A stretch of 64,000 nucleotides of DNA from a virus. Lineage: Duplodnaviria; Caudoviricetes. Where the stretch lies: IMG/VR virus record IMGVR_UViG_3300006930_000001, positions 1-64,000 of that record. The stretch is one strand, 5' to 3'. Both the position numbers and the translations under genes were made by a program. The notes beneath the pieces are model-generated. The model searched no databases, was not told where the DNA came from, and was given only the letters and a program-made list of their open reading frames with translations. Positions 1,726 to 63,944 of the stretch are shown piece after piece; the first letter of the stretch is position 1, and each line of letters begins with the position of its first letter.

Positions 1726-2511
1726 ATGAAGGTGATTGATTGCAAGACAATTGCTAATGCTCATGTTCTTTTGGTAAATTACGTCTTCAACGAAGGTATA
1801 CGGATGTATACAGAAGATGGCCAAAGTTGTATTGAGGCAGAACCTGTTGCAGTAACGATTCATAGACCCTGGTCAGAGAACGATGAGGATATGATTCATC
1901 CAGACAGTCCAGCACAGAGAAAAAAAGTTCTGGCTTATGTGGACCAGATTTTCAACGGTGCGAAAGGTTTTGAGTATACATATCACGAACGGCTTGCAGA
2001 ATACAAGCGTATCAATGGTAGCATCTCTGCAATTATCGCAAATGTCAAAGCATGCCTTTGTAATGATTCTTTGATAGCAGATCTTGATGTTGTAGAAGAA
2101 TTGGCAATGGATGTCGAAGAACCAGTAGATCAGATCGACGCATTGATTGATCACTTAAAGCACGAACCAATGACACGGAGAGCAGTGGCCATTACCTGGT
2201 ATCCCTGGAAGGATCCCAATACACAGCACGTTCCATGTCTGCAGTTCATACAGTTTAAGACAAGGAAAGTAAAATTTGGAAGACTGTTCTGGTTACTCGG
2301 CAAAAAACCAATTCTTGATATGTATGTTCTGTTCCGGTCAGAAGATGTTCTCGGAGCCTTTGGCCAAAATGCAGTAGGTTTTGCAGCACTACAAAGGTAT
2401 GTGGCCGATTGCATTGGTTTTGAAATTGGAAAATATGAACATATTGTTACGATTCCACATTTCTATCCAAATACTAATGCACCCGAAATGAAACGGATGA
2501 CAAAATGCTAA
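1726..2511 (+). CDS. thyA: Thymidylate synthase (archaeal-type ThyA)
   Basis: RRAVAITW, catalytic HVPCLQ, FRSEDVLGAFGQN (dUMP-specificity Asn retained), PHFY. Confidence 0.85.
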   Translation: MKVIDCKTIANAHVLLVNYVFNEGIRMYTEDGQSCIEAEPVAVTIHRPWSENDEDMIHPDSPAQRKKVLAYVDQIFNGAKGFEYTYHERLAEYKRINGSISAIIANVKACLCNDSLIADLDVVEELAMDVEEPVDQIDALIDHLKHEPMTRRAVAITWYPWKDPNTQHVPCLQFIQFKTRKVKFGRLFWLLGKKPILDMYVLFRSEDVLGAFGQNAVGFAALQRYVADCIGFEIGKYEHIVTIPHFYPNTNAPEMKRMTKC

Positions 2512-4577
2512 ACGATATATTATCGAGGGGATACCTCAAAAAAGGCGAGAAATCCTGGGAAGACATTGCATTAAGGGTTTCTAAATTTGCTGGTGGAAAA
2601 GAAATGTTCAGATTGATGTGTGATAAGAAATTGATACCAGCAAGTCCATTTCTCATCAATGCAGGGACAGATCATCCACAATGTTTCTCATGCTTTGTTC
2701 TTCCATTGGAAGATAACCTGAAAAGTATTTTCCAATTCTACACAGAGGCAGCAACCATTTTCAAGTCATCTGGTGGAGTAGGAGCAAACTGGAGCAAACT
2801 TCGTCCAGTAGGATCTCCATTATCTGGTGGGGGGACTACCAGTGGTGTAATTTCCTTCATGGAAATCTTTGATCAGGTGATTGAAAAGGTAAAACAAGGT
2901 GGTATGAAAAAAGGTGCTGCTCTTGCATGCCTTGATATAACCCATCCAGAAGTGGAAGATTTTATCAGATCTAAACTCATCAAAGGTTCACTTACCAACA
3001 TGAACATCTCACCAATTGTTCGTGACGATTTCATGAGAAGGGTAACAAAGAAAGATCCAGAGGCACTTCGTTTATTCAATCTCATTGTTGATTGCACCTG
3101 GAAATGTTCAGAACCTGGAATGTTATTTATCGATACAGCAAACCGTGATAATACAGTCCCTGGTCTCGGGGATTACGAATCCACAAATCCATGCGGAGAG
3201 TTATGGTTACTGGATTATGAATGTTGTTGTCTATGTGGAATCAATCTTGTTCCATTCTGTAATGGTATGAAGGTTGACTTTGGTGGTCTTGAAAAGGCAG
3301 TAAGAACTGCTATACGGTTCATGGATGAAGCAATCGACAAGAACGAATACCCAATCCCTCAGATAGAAGAGATGTCAAAGAGAACCAGGAGAATCGGATT
3401 ATATCCACTTGGTGTTGCTGATGTCCTGGTAAATGCAAAATTACCATACAATTCAAAAGATGGCAGAGCATTCATAGAATCAATCTGGGAATTTGTAAAT
3501 AAGATTGCTTGGGATGAATCGGTAAAACTTGGACAAAAACTTGGACAATTCCCTGCACATGAACACAGAGATACAAATCTTGTCCCAGAAGGTGCCAGGA
3601 ATGCATCTGTTACTTGTGCTGCCCCAGGTGGAACAACCAGTTTTATAGCAGGTTCAAATTATGGGATAGAGCCATTCACATCATTTGTATCTATTCGAAG
3701 GAATGGTGCTGGAGAAGGTATGATCATCGAACCTCATTTCGAAGAGATGCTCGATACCATATGCCCAGAACATAAACAGGAAGCGATAGACCATTGCTTA
3801 AAGACAGGATCGATACATGACCTGGACTTTATACCGTCTGAAATACGTAAGGTATTTGTGACCGCCTATGGAATCTCATGGAAGGACCATATTGACATGC
3901 AGGTCATATTCCAGAAGTTATGTCATGGTGGATCTATTTCGAAGACTGTGAACCTGCCAGAGAGCACCACAAGAGAAGATATCGCTGAAGCCTATATCTA
4001 CGCATGGAAGAAGGGATGTAAAGGGATCACATTCTACCGGGAAGGAACCAGGGATGCGGTCTATAATCTGCAGAAGGAAAAGATCAAAAGGACCGGCCCA
4101 GACTACAAAGTCCCAAAGACAGCACCTGCCATCAGATACAATGTCAATGTAGGATGTGGCCGGATGTCAGTAATCGTCGTCGGGGATCCCGAGACCTATG
4201 AACCCATCGAAGTCTGGATGATACCGGTATCTGGAGGAGGATGTGCAGGTCATTGTAGTGGAGAAGGCAGGACCATCAGTAATGCTCTCCAGTATGGTTT
4301 CCCTCCAGAAAGATTTGCATCGAGTATGGGAAAAGTGGTTTGCAAAGCATGTGCAAACAAAGAAAAACTTGATGGAAAATCATGTCCTGATGCTGCAGGA
4401 AGAAAATTGATTCAGTTTATCAAGGATTCTCCTGTTATGTTCAACCAGGTAAAAGAAGACCTTGAAGATGTTATTCAAGGCAAAAAAGAAGGTGTATGCC
4501 CGGATTGTGGTGCAGAACTTGAACATGCCCAGGGCTGTGTAGCCTGCCGATCATGTGGTTGGTCTGGGTGTTCGTAA
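2505..4577 (+). CDS. nrdJ: Class II (adenosylcobalamin-dependent) ribonucleotide reductase with C-terminal TSCPD-like and Zn-ribbon regions
   Basis: PASPFL, CFSCFV, GGVG, TNPCGE catalytic motif, RRIGL, APGGTTS, ISKTVN, FYREG; KSCPDA and CPDCG...CRSCGWSGC at the C-terminus; no small subunit gene nearby. Confidence 0.92.
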   Translation: MLNDILSRGYLKKGEKSWEDIALRVSKFAGGKEMFRLMCDKKLIPASPFLINAGTDHPQCFSCFVLPLEDNLKSIFQFYTEAATIFKSSGGVGANWSKLRPVGSPLSGGGTTSGVISFMEIFDQVIEKVKQGGMKKGAALACLDITHPEVEDFIRSKLIKGSLTNMNISPIVRDDFMRRVTKKDPEALRLFNLIVDCTWKCSEPGMLFIDTANRDNTVPGLGDYESTNPCGELWLLDYECCCLCGINLVPFCNGMKVDFGGLEKAVRTAIRFMDEAIDKNEYPIPQIEEMSKRTRRIGLYPLGVADVLVNAKLPYNSKDGRAFIESIWEFVNKIAWDESVKLGQKLGQFPAHEHRDTNLVPEGARNASVTCAAPGGTTSFIAGSNYGIEPFTSFVSIRRNGAGEGMIIEPHFEEMLDTICPEHKQEAIDHCLKTGSIHDLDFIPSEIRKVFVTAYGISWKDHIDMQVIFQKLCHGGSISKTVNLPESTTREDIAEAYIYAWKKGCKGITFYREGTRDAVYNLQKEKIKRTGPDYKVPKTAPAIRYNVNVGCGRMSVIVVGDPETYEPIEVWMIPVSGGGCAGHCSGEGRTISNALQYGFPPERFASSMGKVVCKACANKEKLDGKSCPDAAGRKLIQFIKDSPVMFNQVKEDLEDVIQGKKEGVCPDCGAELEHAQGCVACRSCGWSGCS

Positions 4578-30402: not shown

Positions 30403-33400
30403 TTAGATCACCACATTCATCTCAATAGTTCCTACTGCAGAAATGACCTGGAATTCAAGATTTGCTGTTATGCACAGGATTTCTACACAGTCCCTGTAGT
30501 GCGATGATTGGATATACCCATCCACACCTTTTCTGGTCTCCCGGTCCAAAAAGAATATCTGCTGGTTGGCATTTTGACCGATCTTCCATCCACCAACACC
30601 TTTGCCCACTACACGGAATTTGTCACCCATTGCACAAGTTGTAGGGAGTGATAACACAAGACGCGATTCTCCATTGGATATGTAGCATTTGTCTGCCTCG
30701 ATTGTCCTGGACGATACCAATTGCGACCATGATTCTCCTGCTTCTGGAATTACCCACGGGACCCAGACACCACCAGTTTTTGCATATCTGATTCCTGCTG
30801 TCTGATCATAGAGCATTGCTCCTTCGGGTGGAACATCAAATTCCCATTCTCCACCAGTTCCATTGTCTATCCAGGTTGCAATTTTGTTTTCTTGGTCTGC
30901 CCATACACCTGTAGGAGATGCTCCAACAAGGAATCTATCATTAAAGTCATAATTGACAGGTGGAGCATTTAACGTGGCTTCTACCGATTCTTGCCAAGAT
31001 CCATCACTTGTTCCTGCAGGTCCTCTTGGCCCCATAGGTCCTTGTGGTCCGACTGCACCGGTATCACCCTTCTCACCACGTAACCCACGTAGTCCAGTTG
31101 GTCCCTGTGGTCCCTGTGGACCTTCGACACCCTGAAGACCACGTGGGCCTACAATATGACCACAATTTACCCAGGAAGTTCCAAACCAGACATAACAGTT
31201 CTGATCTGCTGCACAGAGATACCCATCATTCAGCGTGGCCGATACCGGAAGATCCCCAACAGTTGCCACAGATCCCAGGAGATTAATCTGGGTTCCAGGT
31301 GCTCCTGGTGGACCCTCGGGACCCATTGGACCAGCAGGACCTACAAGTCCATCTTCGCCATCAACGCCATCCTGACCATTGGTTCCAGCATCTCCTTTTT
31401 CTCCTTGTGGTCCACGGACTACAGAAGTTATATCGATCCATGCTGAACCATCCCATTGCTGATATACAGATCCTACGATAATAAACGTATCCTGTTGAAG
31501 AATTGGATTTCCTTCAGTTGCAAAATGTGCATCACGGGCAGTAGTATCTGCAAAGATATGTTCTGGTCTTACATAGATAGGACCAATGTATACTTGTTTA
31601 TTTACAAATGCAGATTCTTCTGCTTCGTAAAATATACCATCACCATCTTGTGGATTGGTGATCTTGAATCCTGCAAGTTCTACCCAATTATGTCCATGAC
31701 CAGCAAGAGCAAAATCACTTGACGGATGCCCATTAAGCAGTTGTGCATTAAGATTCGGAACAAGCACTTGTGATGCAACAAGGAATGGAGATCCTACATT
31801 TGTGAACGTATGCTGTGCAGAAATCTCTCTTGCATTGGCAAGATGAATATATTGCAAATGATCGTCATTTGCGAGTCCTGCAAGTGCAGAATGGTTTACA
31901 ACGCTTGGCAATTTCACCCAGGTAGTTCCATTGTATGTATACGAATGGTTATCTGCTACACATGCAACAAGCCATCCAGTTACCGGAGATTCGAATGCCC
32001 ATTCAGTTGTATATGTAGCAATTGCATTGTTATGACCTTCGAATGCTCCAGTTCCAGCAGTTCCGACCAGATAAATATCACCAGACGATGGTGTAACTGG
32101 TGGTGTATTGGTAACATCAAGAACAGAACATTTCCAAATCATACCAGCCACTGCTGCCGCAAGTGTATCAAGCGTTACTGCATCGGATCCAGCAACAGGT
32201 GGCGATAGATTGGTAAGTCTTCGTGTCTGGGCATCGATGGTTTCTGTATACATCCTCGGGTATCTTCCATCATGGGTATGAGGAGATCCACCAATATTAT
32301 ACGTTTCTCCACCTGGAATATTGATAGAATTTGGAACAATACCATATGGGAATCGTGCAATTGCATCGGCACGTATTGTCATTGCTTCTGCAATTTCAAG
32401 TCCACCAATAGGTTTTACCACAAGTGATACTCTGGAAAATCCATTACTGGCACAACATCCATAAATGAACATTCCACCACCAAATTCATCAACCTTTACA
32501 TTTTTGATGACATTTGCAGCGAATCCTATCCTTGGATGCAATGTTGCATTCTGTTCACAAGCATTCCAGTAATTATCTGGGTTCCATTTGGTATCTATAT
32601 CAAGAATTCCACCATATGTGAGAGTATCAAACGATGCATGCGTTTTAAGGATATATTCTCCACGACCAGTCTTGAACGGACGTTTAATCAGAAGATTTCC
32701 TTCGAGAAATGCATCATACCCTGCAGCCTTGGCATATCCACCAAATGAATCTGCCCAGACCATTAACTGATTTTTCACTGTTGGTGTTATTGGCAAAATA
32801 CCAGTGGTTGCATTAGACATACCCATGTTGATAAGCATGCAGTTTTCAAATAACTCTGCTGCCTCTTCATTCATACCAACACGGAGTTCTCTTTTTGTAA
32901 AATCTACACCAAGTTCTCCACCCCATAATCTTGCATTTGCAAGCCCTGCAGTATTTCCACGTTTTATAAGAATAATATTCTCTGTGCAATGAACTGACTT
33001 AAAAGTGGCAGTAACATCCAGATCTTCGGTAAGTGCATCATATACAACGGTATCACCTTCAACCTCTTCACCATTCACAGTAAGGGTATCAAGTTCATAA
33101 TCGTCGTCCGGGACTGCACGAATTACCACACGTTGGCCCTGGAGATAATCTTCACTTCCAGGATACATTGGTGTCGGATCAACAGAAATATCACCACCAA
33201 GACCAGATCCTCCAGTGGTATCAATATTATACGCAGTATGCGGTCCTGCACCAAATTCAACCGTTACTTCGAGATCGTCTTGTATATTTGGAATTTCAAC
33301 ACCAGCAATACCTCCAGTTCCAGTTCCAAGACCTGCTTCCGAATACTGTGTCGAAACACCAGTTCTTAAATTCTTTACAGTTATCGTCTTTGTTCTAAAA

Positions 33401-33585
33401 CCATTTGGTAAATTTGCTCCACCAGAATTGTAAGCATCTCTACTTGGTATGGTTTGAACATAAAACGAATCACCAGGTTCTACCCAGGATTCACCAAGTT
33501 TTTCAACGGAGTTTACTGCGTTGCATGGGGCACAATTATCCCCAAACATATCCTTGGTGTTCTTAATTACGTTTACGTATGGCAT
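30403..33585 (-). CDS. Large fibre protein with collagen-like repeats and DUF2793-like modules (1060 aa)
   Basis: Two Gly-X-Y runs (about 31010-31150 and 31290-31410); two W..V...PP....D.ylVG..tG.....n.iA.w modules; DDHLQY motif. Confidence 0.8.
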   Translation of the reverse strand: MPYVNVIKNTKDMFGDNCAPCNAVNSVEKLGESWVEPGDSFYVQTIPSRDAYNSGGANLPNGFRTKTITVKNLRTGVSTQYSEAGLGTGTGGIAGVEIPNIQDDLEVTVEFGAGPHTAYNIDTTGGSGLGGDISVDPTPMYPGSEDYLQGQRVVIRAVPDDDYELDTLTVNGEEVEGDTVVYDALTEDLDVTATFKSVHCTENIILIKRGNTAGLANARLWGGELGVDFTKRELRVGMNEEAAELFENCMLINMGMSNATTGILPITPTVKNQLMVWADSFGGYAKAAGYDAFLEGNLLIKRPFKTGRGEYILKTHASFDTLTYGGILDIDTKWNPDNYWNACEQNATLHPRIGFAANVIKNVKVDEFGGGMFIYGCCASNGFSRVSLVVKPIGGLEIAEAMTIRADAIARFPYGIVPNSINIPGGETYNIGGSPHTHDGRYPRMYTETIDAQTRRLTNLSPPVAGSDAVTLDTLAAAVAGMIWKCSVLDVTNTPPVTPSSGDIYLVGTAGTGAFEGHNNAIATYTTEWAFESPVTGWLVACVADNHSYTYNGTTWVKLPSVVNHSALAGLANDDHLQYIHLANAREISAQHTFTNVGSPFLVASQVLVPNLNAQLLNGHPSSDFALAGHGHNWVELAGFKITNPQDGDGIFYEAEESAFVNKQVYIGPIYVRPEHIFADTTARDAHFATEGNPILQQDTFIIVGSVYQQWDGSAWIDITSVVRGPQGEKGDAGTNGQDGVDGEDGLVGPAGPMGPEGPPGAPGTQINLLGSVATVGDLPVSATLNDGYLCAADQNCYVWFGTSWVNCGHIVGPRGLQGVEGPQGPQGPTGLRGLRGEKGDTGAVGPQGPMGPRGPAGTSDGSWQESVEATLNAPPVNYDFNDRFLVGASPTGVWADQENKIATWIDNGTGGEWEFDVPPEGAMLYDQTAGIRYAKTGGVWVPWVIPEAGESWSQLVSSRTIEADKCYISNGESRLVLSLPTTCAMGDKFRVVGKGVGGWKIGQNANQQIFFLDRETRKGVDGYIQSSHYRDCVEILCITANLEFQVISAVGTIEMNVVI

Positions 33586-58937: not shown

Positions 58938-59561
58938 ATGACTTACTCAATCCTCTACGTTGATTGTCCCTGGCAATACAAAGACAAAGCTAATGCGGGT
59001 AAGCGTGGAGCAGAACACAAATACCAGTGCATGTCCCTGGCCGAATTGATCGGAATGCGTCCATATATTGATTCTATTGCGAACGACAATTCTGTCATGT
59101 TCATGTGGGCTACAGGACCAATTATGCCAGATGCACTAAAGGTAATGGAATATTGGGAATTTGATTACCGGACCATTGCGTTTACCTGGATCAAGACTAA
59201 TCCGAAAGGGACCGGGAGATCCCTGGATACTGGCCAACCATTGTATCTTGCCACATTCCTTAATCGTGAAGGAGAAATTGATACATATGGTGATTTCCTT
59301 GGTATGGGTAATCATACCAGGGCCAATGCAGAATTTGTTCTTCTTGGTGTGCGTGGTAAAGGATTACAAAGAGTAAATAATTCTGTGCGCTCTACAGTTA
59401 TATCCCCTATTAGAGAACATTCCAGAAAGCCTGCAGAAGTAAGAACTGCAATAGAAAATCTATATGGTGAGCAGGAAAGGATAGAATTGTTTGCCAGAGA
59501 GGTTGTTTCTGGTTGGGATGCTCATGGATTAGAAACCGACAAATTTAAATCACCAGAGTGA
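58938..59561 (+). CDS. MT-A70-family adenine-N6 methyltransferase
   Basis: YSILYVDCPWQY (DPPW variant), MFMWAT, WEFDYRTIAFTWIK, GMGNHTRANAE, EHSRKP, RIELFARE, GWDAHG. Confidence 0.88.
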   Translation: MTYSILYVDCPWQYKDKANAGKRGAEHKYQCMSLAELIGMRPYIDSIANDNSVMFMWATGPIMPDALKVMEYWEFDYRTIAFTWIKTNPKGTGRSLDTGQPLYLATFLNREGEIDTYGDFLGMGNHTRANAEFVLLGVRGKGLQRVNNSVRSTVISPIREHSRKPAEVRTAIENLYGEQERIELFAREVVSGWDAHGLETDKFKSPE

Positions 59562-59798
59562 TAATATTGTAATGTGGCACAGACGGAGAGTAACTACTGA
59601 TACCAGCATCAACGTCCGTCTGTGTTAATAACTGATGAAAAATTGTTGTGTTGTGCCTCTGCTTCGGGTCAAACCGTTGTGGAGGTATTGGCCGGGTAAT
59701 AACCGGCACTCCGAGTTCAGGATTGAGCATGACAATCCCCCTAACAACATGCACATAAGTCGGGAAATTGCCTGCAGGGACCAACCCTCCCTGTTATT

Positions 59799-59896
59799 GC
59801 CCCATTCGACAACTGGATGTCCACAGAAATGTGCCAGGGATATTATATCGATCACTGATATTCTTGGAACCACGGTTCGAGTCCGTGGATGGGGTC
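59799..59896 (+). ncRNA. tRNA-like element 1 (non-canonical anticodon region)
   Basis: Acceptor GCCCCAT/ATGGGGT; D arm GACA-ACTGGA-TGTC; CACA-GAAA-TGTG hairpin; 10-bp hairpin 59834-59867; T arm CCACGG-TTCGAGT-CCGTGG. Confidence 0.6.
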
Positions 59897-60148
59897 TGTC
59901 CATCCGTATAATCCAATTTAATGATCTGGTATCCATTCCAGTGAGTTGCTTGGAGTTGGACCGCTGTGAATTAATCGGTAAATAAACAGCATGCGTTGTA
60001 GGAGTTCCGTAAACCTTCCGCCTTTGCTGGTTGTCGTGTTACATCAACCAGAAGTTAAGATGGTTGCTATAAACCACTCGTATATGATTCCGACGCACAG
60101 GGATCTATGGCAGTAAACTCACAATAGGCCATTGTGTTCTGCCGTAAC

Positions 60149-60190
60149 AATGAGGAACGACTGCGATGGTTCAATTCCATCCCCTCGTTA
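60149..60190 (+). ncRNA. tRNA-like element 2 (acceptor plus T-arm minihelix)
   Basis: AATGAGG/CCTCGTT stem, 9-nt linker, GATGG-TTCAATT-CCATC. Confidence 0.45.
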
Positions 60191-60236
60191 TCCCTGACTG
60201 CAGCAGGGCGCTGGCCAGCGTTTTGGTCCAGCAAGT

Positions 60237-60345
60237 AGCAGATAGGTGACGAATTGGTCAAGTCAAATCGTGACTGTTATCAAATGCATCCCTGGTAACA
60301 AGATGGTTCCCAAAGGGTTCGTGGGTTCGATTCCCACATCTGCTA
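60237..60345 (+). tRNA. tRNA-like element 3 (class II-like with insertion; isotype not assignable)
   Basis: AGCAGAT/ATCTGCT acceptor; GAC-GAATTGGTCAA-GTC D arm; CCC-AAA-GGG variable arm; GTGGG-TTCGATT-CCCAC T arm; 4-nt acceptor-D connector and no canonical BHB or U33. Confidence 0.5.
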
Positions 60346-60478
60346 TCTCCCTGGTCCAGTGACAGGGAAAACTTAAAGGAGAATCCTGAAAATGTTACGG
60401 CGGATCGGGAGTCACTGGTCCGAACATTCTCTGCCGTGGGTAGAGATCTTTTTTATTGCTTCTTATCAAAGTTAATAT

Positions 60479-60937
60479 ATGCCAATTTGCAATAAGGGAA
60501 TAAGAGGTTGTGTAATCTGCCAGAACAAGAAGATATCGGATATTGTGGATCCTATCGTCTTTGGTGCAGAAATGAAGATGGCAGACCTCAAGGAAAAACT
60601 TGAGAATCAGTATGGTTTAATGTGTGAACTTACTGAACTAAAGGCTCATGCACGCCATGTATTTTTCATTGATTCTGATTCTATTGACAAAGTTTCTGAA
60701 AAAAAGAAATATGTTATAGAATCAAAAACGATAGACATCATAAATGATGAATTGGCCGAATTGACCACTGCTATGGAAGGCTACAGGAGAAATGGCCAGG
60801 ACAATACCCTTGAGTTCTCTAAGATGCAGAAGACCATGATCGAACTTCTGAACATGCGGGCAAAGATCGAGGGAGAAATCTCTGATGGTGTCATTGTAGT
60901 GCCTCCCTGGTTGGAGTCAATGGATGACCAGGCTTAA
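60479..60937 (+). CDS. Terminase small subunit candidate
   Basis: Directly upstream of TerL; N-terminal GCVIC...HARH; C-terminal coiled coil. Confidence 0.55.
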   Translation: MPICNKGIRGCVICQNKKISDIVDPIVFGAEMKMADLKEKLENQYGLMCELTELKAHARHVFFIDSDSIDKVSEKKKYVIESKTIDIINDELAELTTAMEGYRRNGQDNTLEFSKMQKTMIELLNMRAKIEGEISDGVIVVPPWLESMDDQA

Positions 60938-62369
60938 ATTTTATGATAAGCCACTTACCCTTTTCAATTTAGCAAAAACTGTTCTTGGTTATAACAAAAT
61001 AACTGAAAAGCATCGTAGGGTATGGTGTGATCCTCTTGAAGAGAATCTAAAACGATACCGGAGGCACCTGTATCTTAAACCCAGAGGAACTTACAAATCA
61101 ACATTGTATACCGTTTCTTTTGCAATTAACCTGCTTATACAAGATTGGTATGATAATGGTGGAAAATTTACAAAAAGGATCCTGGTTGCCTCCGCTACAA
61201 ATGAACTTGCAGAACAATTTGTTGGTGAAATAAAGCAACATCTTACCGAGAATGATAAACTGCATCGTGTATTTGGTTATAATCCAGTTAAAAGAGATAA
61301 TCAAAGAGAAGTTTGGTTAAATCCCCGTGTAGTGAAGAAAGAACCAAATATCAAAGCAAAAGGTGCATTGTCTTCACTTACATCGGAACACTATGATATC
61401 ATTATCTGTGATGATATTTGTAATAACGATGATCGTGAATCTGAAACTATACGTGAGAAAAAGAAACGCTGGCTACAAGACCTTATCTCTATCCTTGAAC
61501 CAGACGGTCTCCTGGTGGTAATAGGGACCAGATGGCATTCAGATGATGTCTACCAAGGGATTATAGACAATAATCCAAAATTGCCACAGAGAGAACAATA
61601 TCATATCGAAATAGAAGCAGTGGTAGATCCAGAAGGCAATCTTTTATTCCCATCCATTATAGACCATGAAAAAATTGAATCACTAAAAATTGAGAAGGGT
61701 CTTGTAGAATTCTATTCGCAGTATATGAATAATCCATTGCCAGCAGAAACACAGTTGTTTTCTACCGAAAGGATGTATTTCTACAGCGAATCACCAGAAT
61801 CACTGGAGAAAGAAATAAACTTTGCATATATGGATCCTGCTCTGGGTTCAATTGGCAAAGGAAAGAATGATTATATCGTTGTTCTATTCGGAGCAAAGAA
61901 AAATGGTTTCACTTTTGTAAGAGATTGCATCATTACCAATACCACAACACCAGATGCTGTGATAAAGGAAATGAAGCGTATGTATCGTATGTATGGATGT
62001 TCATACGTAGGAGTAGAAGCAAATGGCTACCAGACACTTTTTGCCAAAGCAGTAAGGGAAGAAGGAATGGTGGTCAAAGAAGTGAGGAGCAATAAGCCAA
62101 AGAACATCAGAATAGAATCCATTGAACCCTGGGTAGCATCAGGAAAGATAAGGTTCAGATCTGACTGGAAAATCCATTATCCGAAGTTAATTGAGGAAAT
62201 GGTTGTGTATCCAATTGGTAAACATGATGATGTCCCTGATGCTGTGCATGGTTTATCTGTGATGGGTTCCAGAAAATTATCAGGGATCAAGAAAGAATCG
62301 CTTCGGAATCTTGTAACAACAAAGACACGGTTGCTTTTAGGGAGGAGAAATGGCAGAAGTCATAATTAA
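60924..62369 (+). CDS. terL: Terminase large subunit
   Basis: PRGTYKST Walker A, IIICDD Walker B, IGTRWH, FYSQYMNNP, YMDPALG, VEANG, HDDVPDA. Confidence 0.93.
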   Translation: MTRLKFYDKPLTLFNLAKTVLGYNKITEKHRRVWCDPLEENLKRYRRHLYLKPRGTYKSTLYTVSFAINLLIQDWYDNGGKFTKRILVASATNELAEQFVGEIKQHLTENDKLHRVFGYNPVKRDNQREVWLNPRVVKKEPNIKAKGALSSLTSEHYDIIICDDICNNDDRESETIREKKKRWLQDLISILEPDGLLVVIGTRWHSDDVYQGIIDNNPKLPQREQYHIEIEAVVDPEGNLLFPSIIDHEKIESLKIEKGLVEFYSQYMNNPLPAETQLFSTERMYFYSESPESLEKEINFAYMDPALGSIGKGKNDYIVVLFGAKKNGFTFVRDCIITNTTTPDAVIKEMKRMYRMYGCSYVGVEANGYQTLFAKAVREEGMVVKEVRSNKPKNIRIESIEPWVASGKIRFRSDWKIHYPKLIEEMVVYPIGKHDDVPDAVHGLSVMGSRKLSGIKKESLRNLVTTKTRLLLGRRNGRSHN

Positions 62370-63719: not shown

Positions 63720-63944
63720 ATGGCAAACTTACCAATTGCACCAGTGAAGAAACTTGCGAAGAATGTTGACCGGGAAGCACGTATCGGTGACGATGCTGTT
63801 GCACTTCTGATTCAGATGGCCGAGAAAACCATCACCGATGTAGCAAAAGAGGCATATTCACTTGCATCCTACACAGGAAGAAAGACCATCCAGTCACAGG
63901 ATGTCCGGACTGCCTGCCAGAAACTCGGCATCAAGATCGAGTAA
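63720..63944 (+). CDS. Archaeal histone (HMf-like), virus-encoded
   Basis: LPIAP, ARIGDDA, AKEA..LA, GRKTI..QD histone-fold signature; 2 nt after the portal stop. Confidence 0.93.
   Translation: MANLPIAPVKKLAKNVDREARIGDDAVALLIQMAEKTITDVAKEAYSLASYTGRKTIQSQDVRTACQKLGIKIE

Follow-up and report, generated by a model that had tools for sequence, protein, structure and literature searches.

Between the gene of an MT-A70 methyltransferase and the DNA-packaging genes of the virus deposited as IMG/VR record IMGVR_UViG_3300006930_000001 lies a non-coding stretch of ~0.9 kb, further called the island, which contains three folds (W1, W2 and W3) resembling tRNAs. The complete record comprises 75,120 bp with direct terminal repeats; its first 64 kb are referred to as the window, and coordinates without a label are positions in this window. 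Labels L001–L106 denote the sequences compared. The island and its surroundings are organised as follows (nt, nucleotides; aa, amino acids; MFE, minimum free energy structure).

58938-59561: MT-A70 methyltransferase gene (Pfam, 74 bits), directly upstream of the island
59543..59550, + strand: TATA-like box ATTTAAAT, still within the MT-A70 gene close to its 3′ end, ~26 nt ahead of the first hairpin
59576..59627, + strand: 5′ hairpin of 13 pairs with a 27-nt loop, present in both the MFE and the centroid
59631..59762, + strand: W0, a cloverleaf-shaped four-way junction, present in the MFE and the centroid of 59574-59798
59775..59793, + strand: hairpin CAGGGA-N7-TCCCTG, 6 nt upstream of W1
59799..59896, + strand: W1, a five-armed tRNA look-alike whose MFE and centroid coincide
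59897..60105, + strand: spacer, weakly structured except for a hairpin at 60027-60051
60106..60146, + strand: long hairpin TATGGCAG..CTGCCGTA enclosing CACAAT/ATTGTG, recognised by sequence and fold
60149..60190, + strand: W2, a minihelix of acceptor and T arm, recognised by sequence and fold
60191..60236, + strand: predicted 46-nt RNA (hairpin, palindrome, variable tail), framed exactly by W2 and W3
60237..60345, + strand: W3, a class II-like tRNA look-alike, recognised by sequence, fold and orthologues
60349..60367, + strand: second CCCTG..CAGGG hairpin, 4 nt after W3
60397..60454, + strand: 3′ hairpins ACGGCGGA/TCTGCCGT (60397-404/60430-37), a stem at 60428-60446 and a T run at 60449-60454
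60479 (ATG): 152-aa gene downstream of the island, matching no known family
60924-62369: large terminase (TerL) gene, after the 152-aa gene and followed by the portal gene

An acceptor stem and a 5-bp T stem with a loop of UUCRANY type are present in all three modules. In W1 the acceptor comprises 7 bp, the D arm pairs GACA with TGTC around a GG-containing loop, and TTCGAGT forms the loop of the T arm; the place of the anticodon arm is occupied by a CACA-GAAA-TGTG stub of 3–4 bp capped by GAAA, and an extra arm of 10–12 bp bears a 14-nt loop containing ATCGAT. W2 has neither D nor anticodon arm and consists of the acceptor AATGAGG/CCTCGTT, a 9-nt connector, the T arm GATGG-TTCAATT-CCATC and discriminator A. 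In W3 the acceptor AGCAGAT/ATCTGCT, the D arm with GG in its loop (GAATTGGTCAA), the T arm GTGGG-TTCGATT-CCCAC and discriminator A are combined with a middle part in which an internal loop separates a 3-bp stub from a helix of 7 bp (TGTTATC/GGTAACA; 12-nt loop AAATGCATCCCT), followed by a short CCC-AAA-GGG arm. A canonical anticodon arm (5-bp stem and 7-nt loop with U33, anticodon and purine 37) is absent from all three. W0 is different: its closing stem and three hairpins, including GCCGG-7nt-CCGGC and GGATTG-7nt-CAATCC, contain no T-loop or D-loop motifs, and no homologue of it was found in the relatives compared.

Units of this kind exceed chance expectation. A strict search, requiring a T stem of 5 bp with three or more G/C, the loop TTCRANN and full 7/7 pairing of the acceptor, found only three sites in the window's + strand; they lie together in the locus within 470 nt. 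In 100 shuffled sequences the count averaged 0.14 and never exceeded 1. Hairpins CCCTG..CAGGG occur only twice in 64 kb, right after W2 and right after W3, with 0.14 expected by chance. The + strand of the locus folds with an MFE of −314.8 kcal/mol and z of −5.84 (0 of 20 shuffles were equal or better), and the − strand is far weaker (z −2.81). The folding signal is uneven along the locus. It is pronounced at 59574-59798, where the 13-bp hairpin and the four-way junction are situated (z −3.74), and in W1 alone (z −2.94, the common MFE and centroid structure making up 34% of the ensemble), and it is not significant in the middle part, 59897-60148 (z −1.23).

A preliminary description of this DNA, made from the letters alone, had proposed a plus-strand RNA with three acceptor/T-arm units devoid of a normal anticodon arm, and both the strand asymmetry and the architecture of the modules agree with it. 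All eight sets of stems named there were recovered (59577-87/59615-25, 59691-707, 59720-38, 59775-93, 60027-33/60045-51, 60106-13/60139-46, 60192-208 together with 60349-67, and 60397-404/60430-37). Of the tRNA elbow attributed there to the units, the D arm with GG is present in W1 and W3; W2 has no D arm. The term “ORF-free” is true only approximately: mechanically predicted open reading frames (ORFs) of 116, 103 and 79 aa overlap the locus, but none matches a PHROG family and the frames are not common to homologous islands. The short ORFs seen at the 3′ end, of 27 aa in the window and of 23 aa in the related sequence L014, use different frames over conserved DNA and were taken as non-coding.

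None of the modules scores as a tRNA. ARAGORN with default settings reported 0 tRNAs and no tmRNA in the locus, and Rfam at the gathering score gave no match there, in line with the novelty originally claimed for this RNA. When E values up to 10 were allowed, the sole Rfam match in the locus was tRNA-Sec on W3 (15.9 bits). With the tRNA model RF00005, nothing in the whole 75-kb genome exceeded the 29-bit gathering cut-off, W3 being the best at 15.3 bits. No match was returned when the locus was compared by blastn with 50,697 phage records. When the locus was searched for C/D boxes, UGAUGA occurred once, RUGAUGA was absent and no CUGA stood where a partner D box would be expected, and antisense targets of two large loops within the window were limited to chance-level matches with 2 mismatches. 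As to tmRNA, ARAGORN made no default call, a relaxed threshold produced only a “permuted” artefact, Rfam matches were confined to the bare T arm, and this candidate was discarded.

ARAGORN calls the modules only under relaxed or intron settings. One can therefore ask whether they are genuine tRNAs in disguise, whose unconventional introns are removed by the archaeal splicing endonuclease or by another route, leaving working anticodon loops. The host is probably archaeal (see below), introns are common in archaeal tRNAs, and in intron mode ARAGORN offers Ile(GAT) for W1 and Cys(GCA) for W3. Yet the proposed “intron” falls inside the anticodon stem and leaves the stems mismatched. A loose scan for bulge-helix-bulge structures gave 139 sites versus 117 in shuffles, which is no excess, and none of them is located at a sensible, usable junction. 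Besides, the W1 stub is shorter than an anticodon arm, W2 is armless, and in family B of the related islands (9 bp plus tetraloop) the arm surpasses a normal anticodon arm by only 4–5 nt, too little for an intron. This explanation is thus quite improbable.

Four metagenomic viruses, found by searches with the terminase and its small subunit, have the same island, likewise placed behind the MT-A70 gene and ahead of the 152-aa gene and TerL.

L014 (same contig as L001 and L013): island 1778-2462; TerL 77% identical
L024: island 2215-3563, equal to that of L014 plus a 660-nt block of extra modules
L015: ORF-free region 1-1228; TerL 74% identical
L023: island cut at the start of the sequence

Their modules are alike but reordered, and in all look-alikes the anticodon loop is either closed or missing. 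They were grouped into seven families.

Family A: W1 and L024A (L024:2495-2593)
Family B: 9-bp stem with GACG tetraloop
Family C: 4 bp with GCAA or GCATA
Family E: W3, L015E (L015:662-769) and L023E (L023:151-230), the last with 5 bp and GAAA
Family F: minihelices, namely W2 and members in L014 and L023
Family G: GAAA or GTGAA stubs
Family H: armless

Apart from a true tRNA-Asp and one tRNA-like module, both in L015, Rfam found no family match in the relatives. The latter (L015:186-260) is of family B type, with the 9-bp stem and GACG tetraloop; it reaches 38 bits with the Rfam tRNA model, above the threshold, and is labelled by ARAGORN as tRNA-??? with a 4-base anticodon. Mimics of this sort may therefore be mis-annotated as tRNAs or frameshift suppressors. 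Another element, at L014:2016-2047, is a perfect minihelix hairpin in which CCGTATA/TATACGG is stacked on GGAAG/CTTTC with the T-loop-like GTCAAAT, and a repeat of GAAGGTCAAATC is situated 30 nt upstream of it. Some relatives also share a conserved non-tRNA block of ~120 nt starting with CACTTCCGAG (L015:781-900, L023:235-356, L024:2940-3067). Its hairpins covary (CATGGG/CCCATG versus CTTGGA/TCCAAG and ACGTT/AACGT versus ACGGT/ACCGT); the block is absent from the window, has no Rfam match and gave 0 pattern matches in IMG/VR. The 17-mer CAGGGCGCTGGCCAGCG, also searched in IMG/VR, had 79 matches, all in unrelated high-GC contigs and none with the full hairpin composite, and they were attributed to chance.

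Modular turnover is best seen in the closest pair, L014:2040-2114 versus L024:2480-3217. The two islands are otherwise 93–97% identical and differ by one 660-nt block composed of five modules (A, G, H, the conserved block and B), so that, judging by this alignment, modules are gained or lost together. Because module number and order vary between relatives, independent modules are preferred to one large RNA. The latter had been put forward in the preliminary description with GOLLD as a model, and the 0.9 kb might in principle form a single GOLLD- or ROOL-like particle or, with terminase genes adjacent, a packaging RNA comparable to phi29 pRNA. The strong overall folding z would suit such a machine, as would GNRA tetraloops and the self-complementary hexamers found in all four large arm loops (ATCGAT; ATGCAT twice; ATGCAT, GATATC and CTGCAG together in one loop), which could provide RNA–RNA contacts. 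But the central 250 nt show no significant folding and no conservation, the predicted long-range pairs do not recur in the relatives, and the island, whose modules are shuffled between relatives, has no Rfam match to GOLLD, ROOL or other large phage RNAs. We consider one large RNA very unlikely. For palindromic hexamers over the whole islands no enrichment was detected.

Homologous modules display the covarying conservation which the preliminary description had proposed to look for. Within a molecule, 228 of 229 stem positions are paired, whereas crossing the strands of different viruses at the changed columns leaves only 52 of 124 paired. Between W1 and L024:2495-2593 all 4 D-stem pairs and 2 T-stem pairs are changed on both sides; family B contains three compensatory changes in its 9-bp non-tRNA stem, and family C a swap of G-C to A-U in the 4-bp stub. 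Of the 10 differences between L014 and L024, which are nearly identical, 3 affect a single acceptor stem, and its pairing is kept. Family E was counted formally on a MAFFT alignment: all 16 core pairs are paired and 9 of them are changed on both sides, with 0 of 500 shuffles matching this result and only 28–40% of pairs retained in slid controls. The 7-bp helix of W3 is entirely different in sequence from that of L015E, and the loop retains AATGCATC. The folds of the modules are thus kept under selection by compensatory change.

The same data bear on the assumption that the island acts as DNA, being an attachment site, a packaging site, an origin or a cluster of operators, with tRNA likeness resulting from copied host tRNA ends. 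This is suggested by the neighbouring terminase genes and by the perfectly conserved 12-bp palindrome CGCTGGCCAGCG, which resembles, and could indeed be, a protein site. Acceptor stems, however, change in step on both strands, as expected from selection on RNA pairing and not on identity with host tRNAs. G-U pairs and the orientation of T loops are specific for the + strand, and no integrase was found among the ORFs scanned, the ORF scan being incomplete. A purely DNA-level role is the least probable of the explanations considered here.

The origin of the island is indicated by L015. At the place of W2 it has a true tRNA-Asp(GUC) (Rfam, 55 bits), and behind it stand the hairpin and palindrome that also follow W2; the island therefore descends from a cluster of tRNA genes. 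Ordinary clusters of this kind are found in T4-type phages and in haloarchaeal viruses (e.g. PMC13532342). In the genome they too form non-coding islands of tRNA-type genes in tandem, and the ancestry is evident; the difference is that no module here has a 7-nt anticodon loop or passes the tRNA model.

With such a pedigree the look-alikes may be suspected of being decaying pseudogenes without present function, in which hairpins are incidental. Clear tRNA descent, attested by the true tRNA-Asp and the 38-bit tRNA-like module of L015 at homologous places, speaks for this suspicion, and the fast turnover of module content, the middle spacer without significant structure and the absence of the island from more distant relatives are consistent with it. 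Decay should break helices, yet practically all stem positions pair and compensatory changes extend even to non-tRNA arms. T and D loops retain their consensus, and anticodon loops were repeatedly exchanged for stable tetraloops (GAAA, GCAA, GTGAA, GACG), which are not random lesions. A dead cluster is accordingly an unlikely, though not negligible, explanation.

We therefore favour, with a probability of roughly 55%, the reading of the island as a viral tRNA gene cluster which was turned into an array of non-decoding tRNA look-alikes cut from one precursor. Probably, as far as their architecture allows one to judge, the tRNA-shaped RNAs serve not in translation but as cutting signals for tRNA-trimming enzymes or as mimics of tRNA. 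The alternative offered in the preliminary description, a polycistron cut at tRNA-like punctuation, fits best: the island stands between one TATA-like box and one T run, the 46-nt stretch is framed by two modules, and t-elements provide a precedent. The box ATTTAAAT, a candidate archaeal promoter of the island, is the sole TATA-like motif in or just upstream of it, with a window average of 0.44 per kb. The T run at 60449-60454 is the single oligo-T run of the island; it stands behind a terminator-like stem, which makes 60397..60454 a candidate 3′ end of the unit. The T-rich box at 60449 is also situated 26 nt ahead of the ATG at 60479, which has no Shine-Dalgarno sequence, and the DNA here is conserved in L014 and L024; from this position the box may be the TATA box of a leaderless mRNA of the terminase operon.

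The enzymes required would be those of the host. The host is probably an archaeon, since the genome encodes a histone-fold protein and an ERCC4 nuclease and its TerL is nearest to that of ANMV-1. In a comparison of TerL with 50,697 phage records, this virus of an uncultured archaeon was the best match (E 2e-65, 35.5% identity), the runner-up having ~1e-14. The histone-fold gene (CBFD_NFYB_HMF, 57 bits, 74 aa, 63720-63944) directly follows the portal gene, the same gene is present behind the portal in L023, and its closest Atlas clusters are archaeal.

The part of a tRNA that RNase P, tRNase Z and the CCA-adding enzyme recognise is its acceptor/T-arm domain. According to the proposed scheme, a single + strand precursor of ~880 nt (~59575-60455) would be synthesised in the archaeal cell. 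Its modules keep the features these enzymes would read, a coaxial acceptor/T-arm helix and the UUCRANY T loop, with the elbow presumably supplied in W1 and W3 by the D arm with GG. Since a tetraloop closes the anticodon loop of W1, W2 lacks this loop and a longer arm takes its place in W3, no codon could be read. Host tRNA-end enzymes would then cut every module, as they do at archaeal t-elements, yielding stable L-shaped RNAs together with inter-module RNAs, above all a conserved hairpin RNA of 46 nt. A further product would be a 110-nt 3′ RNA starting with the same type of hairpin.

The 46-nt RNA which tRNA-processing enzymes would set free begins with the hairpin CCCTG-N7-CAGGG (60192-60208) and the palindrome CGCTGGCCAGCG (60209-60220), the two making up its first 30 nt. 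Positions 60203-60222 are the best conserved part of the island in comparison with L015 (95% identity versus 35–75% elsewhere). The hairpin CCCTG..CAGGG is present also behind the tRNA-Asp of L015, a shorter version CCTGG..CAGG stands behind the family F module of L014, and in L014 and L024 a hairpin homologous to 60349..60367 follows the last module. As to function, mimicry of the tRNA body combined with release of the hairpin RNAs is favoured. Mimicry is added to cutting because the non-tRNA arms and the loop motif AAUGCAUC are conserved, which is needless for a bare cutting signal.

The idea of a processed precursor relies on three precedents: archaeal t-elements, those of plant mitochondria and the TMERs of MHV68. 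In H. volcanii a t-element upstream of 5S rRNA is cut by RNase P and tRNase Z, and RNA set between two t-elements is released, which was used on purpose for CRISPR RNA (both reported in PMC4326828, citing Holzle et al. 2008 and 2012). Archaeal t-elements are, like the modules of the island, tRNA-shaped non-decoding folds keeping the acceptor/T-arm domain, and W1–W3 all answer this description. They are cellular and single, whereas the island is a viral array of 3–8 diverse modules with elaborate conserved extra arms, for which processing is predicted. Closed-loop look-alikes are thus of an already known kind, a point which, together with the probable archaeal host and the descent from a viral tRNA cluster, was not part of the preliminary description. 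T-elements of plant mitochondria set the 5′ and 3′ ends of neighbouring transcripts (PMC1920247); they flank organelle mRNAs, whereas no mRNA is known to depend on the modules of the island.

The TMERs are processed by tRNase Z cleavage, which frees the hairpin, after Pol III transcription, and enter the miRNA pathway. In them a viral tRNA-like RNA precedes hairpins of precursor microRNAs (PMC6926008). As in the island, an uncharged viral look-alike stands directly before a hairpin and several units follow in a row; unlike the island, TMERs belong to a eukaryotic herpesvirus, and there is no sequence relation. Partial mimicry of tRNA (acceptor, T arm, D-loop contact) without decoding is also a property of YrlA and Y RNA modules and of the tmRNA domain. 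In YrlA the acceptor end is sealed, the termini are in the opposite stem and the partner is Ro60, whereas acceptors of the island are open, Rfam gives no match and the genome contains no TROVE domain. From archaea tmRNA is not known. A limited literature search brought up no archaeal virus described as having an array of anticodon-less tRNA look-alikes.

Several circumstances weigh against the favoured reading. The promoter and terminator assignments are each based on a single short motif. No genes for Ro60/TROVE or RtcB were found in the genome, and no evident partner is encoded. With only two or three members per family, counts of covarying pairs are low, and helices of the variable arms were assigned partly by visual inspection; for the short W2, kinship with family F is a link by architecture only. 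Island carriers amount to only four or five related genomes. Distant TerL relatives (49–50% identity) have no T-arm units near TerL, and two contigs of metagenome-assembled genomes and ANMV-1 have no tRNA-like island near this gene. Turnover is so fast that most of the island cannot be aligned between viruses with 77% TerL identity, which fits dispensable DNA as well as an arms-race locus; the spacer 59897..60105, with no BLAST match in the relatives, is not conserved.

A bolder version takes the modules for a new class of virus-made anticodon-less tRNA mimics which act as RNA effectors beyond marking sites of cutting; we regard it as a tentative possibility, with a smaller but real chance of being correct. 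The host would trim and CCA-tail the modules, and the mimics would occupy a host factor reading the tRNA body or the 3′ end. Candidate targets would be toxins attacking the acceptor end (HEPN-MNT, nucleotidyltransferase toxins), a synthetase or a modification enzyme. The idea of decoys for tRNA-targeting defences, raised already in the preliminary description, would belong here. LeuRS, SerRS and AlaRS do not read the anticodon. Families A and E may even be charged, which is conceivable because both have class II-like long extra arms, E has discriminator A and these synthetases ignore the anticodon. Alternatively, modules may assemble with each other through the self-complementary loop hexamers, and GNRA caps could add contacts.

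Viral tRNA genes are usually regarded as aids in codon usage or against nucleases. Here, in a virus probably infecting archaea, a whole cluster gave up decoding with the tRNA body kept under selection, and RNA-based conflict between viruses and hosts is almost unexplored in this domain. If the modules are processing signals, the island would be a natural version of the t-element cassette which experimenters built to obtain small RNAs without Cas6, and it would point to a conserved viral small RNA of 46 nt. If they are mimics, they would represent a new kind of viral effector.

Other features of these genomes deserve mention. Genes for a tail tube and a tape-measure protein identify the virus as tailed. 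TerL, which has 481 aa in the window, is much longer in L015 (1962-4445) and L023 (1621-4155), where it reaches 827–844 aa with a weak LAGLIDADG match, and this extension is probably an inserted intein. A tail-fibre-like protein of 1060 aa (30403-33585, − strand) combines Mtd_N, DUF2793 and collagen repeats; its Mtd_N domain hints at a possible target of a diversity-generating retroelement, a system for which ANMV-1, the nearest TerL relative, is known. In ANMV-1 itself (L106, KP703175.1), ~1.7 kb upstream of TerL, a largely unannotated stretch contains four tandem repeats of ~60 nt, rich in TGGCACC and without tRNA-like units, which are probably an origin or a binding array.

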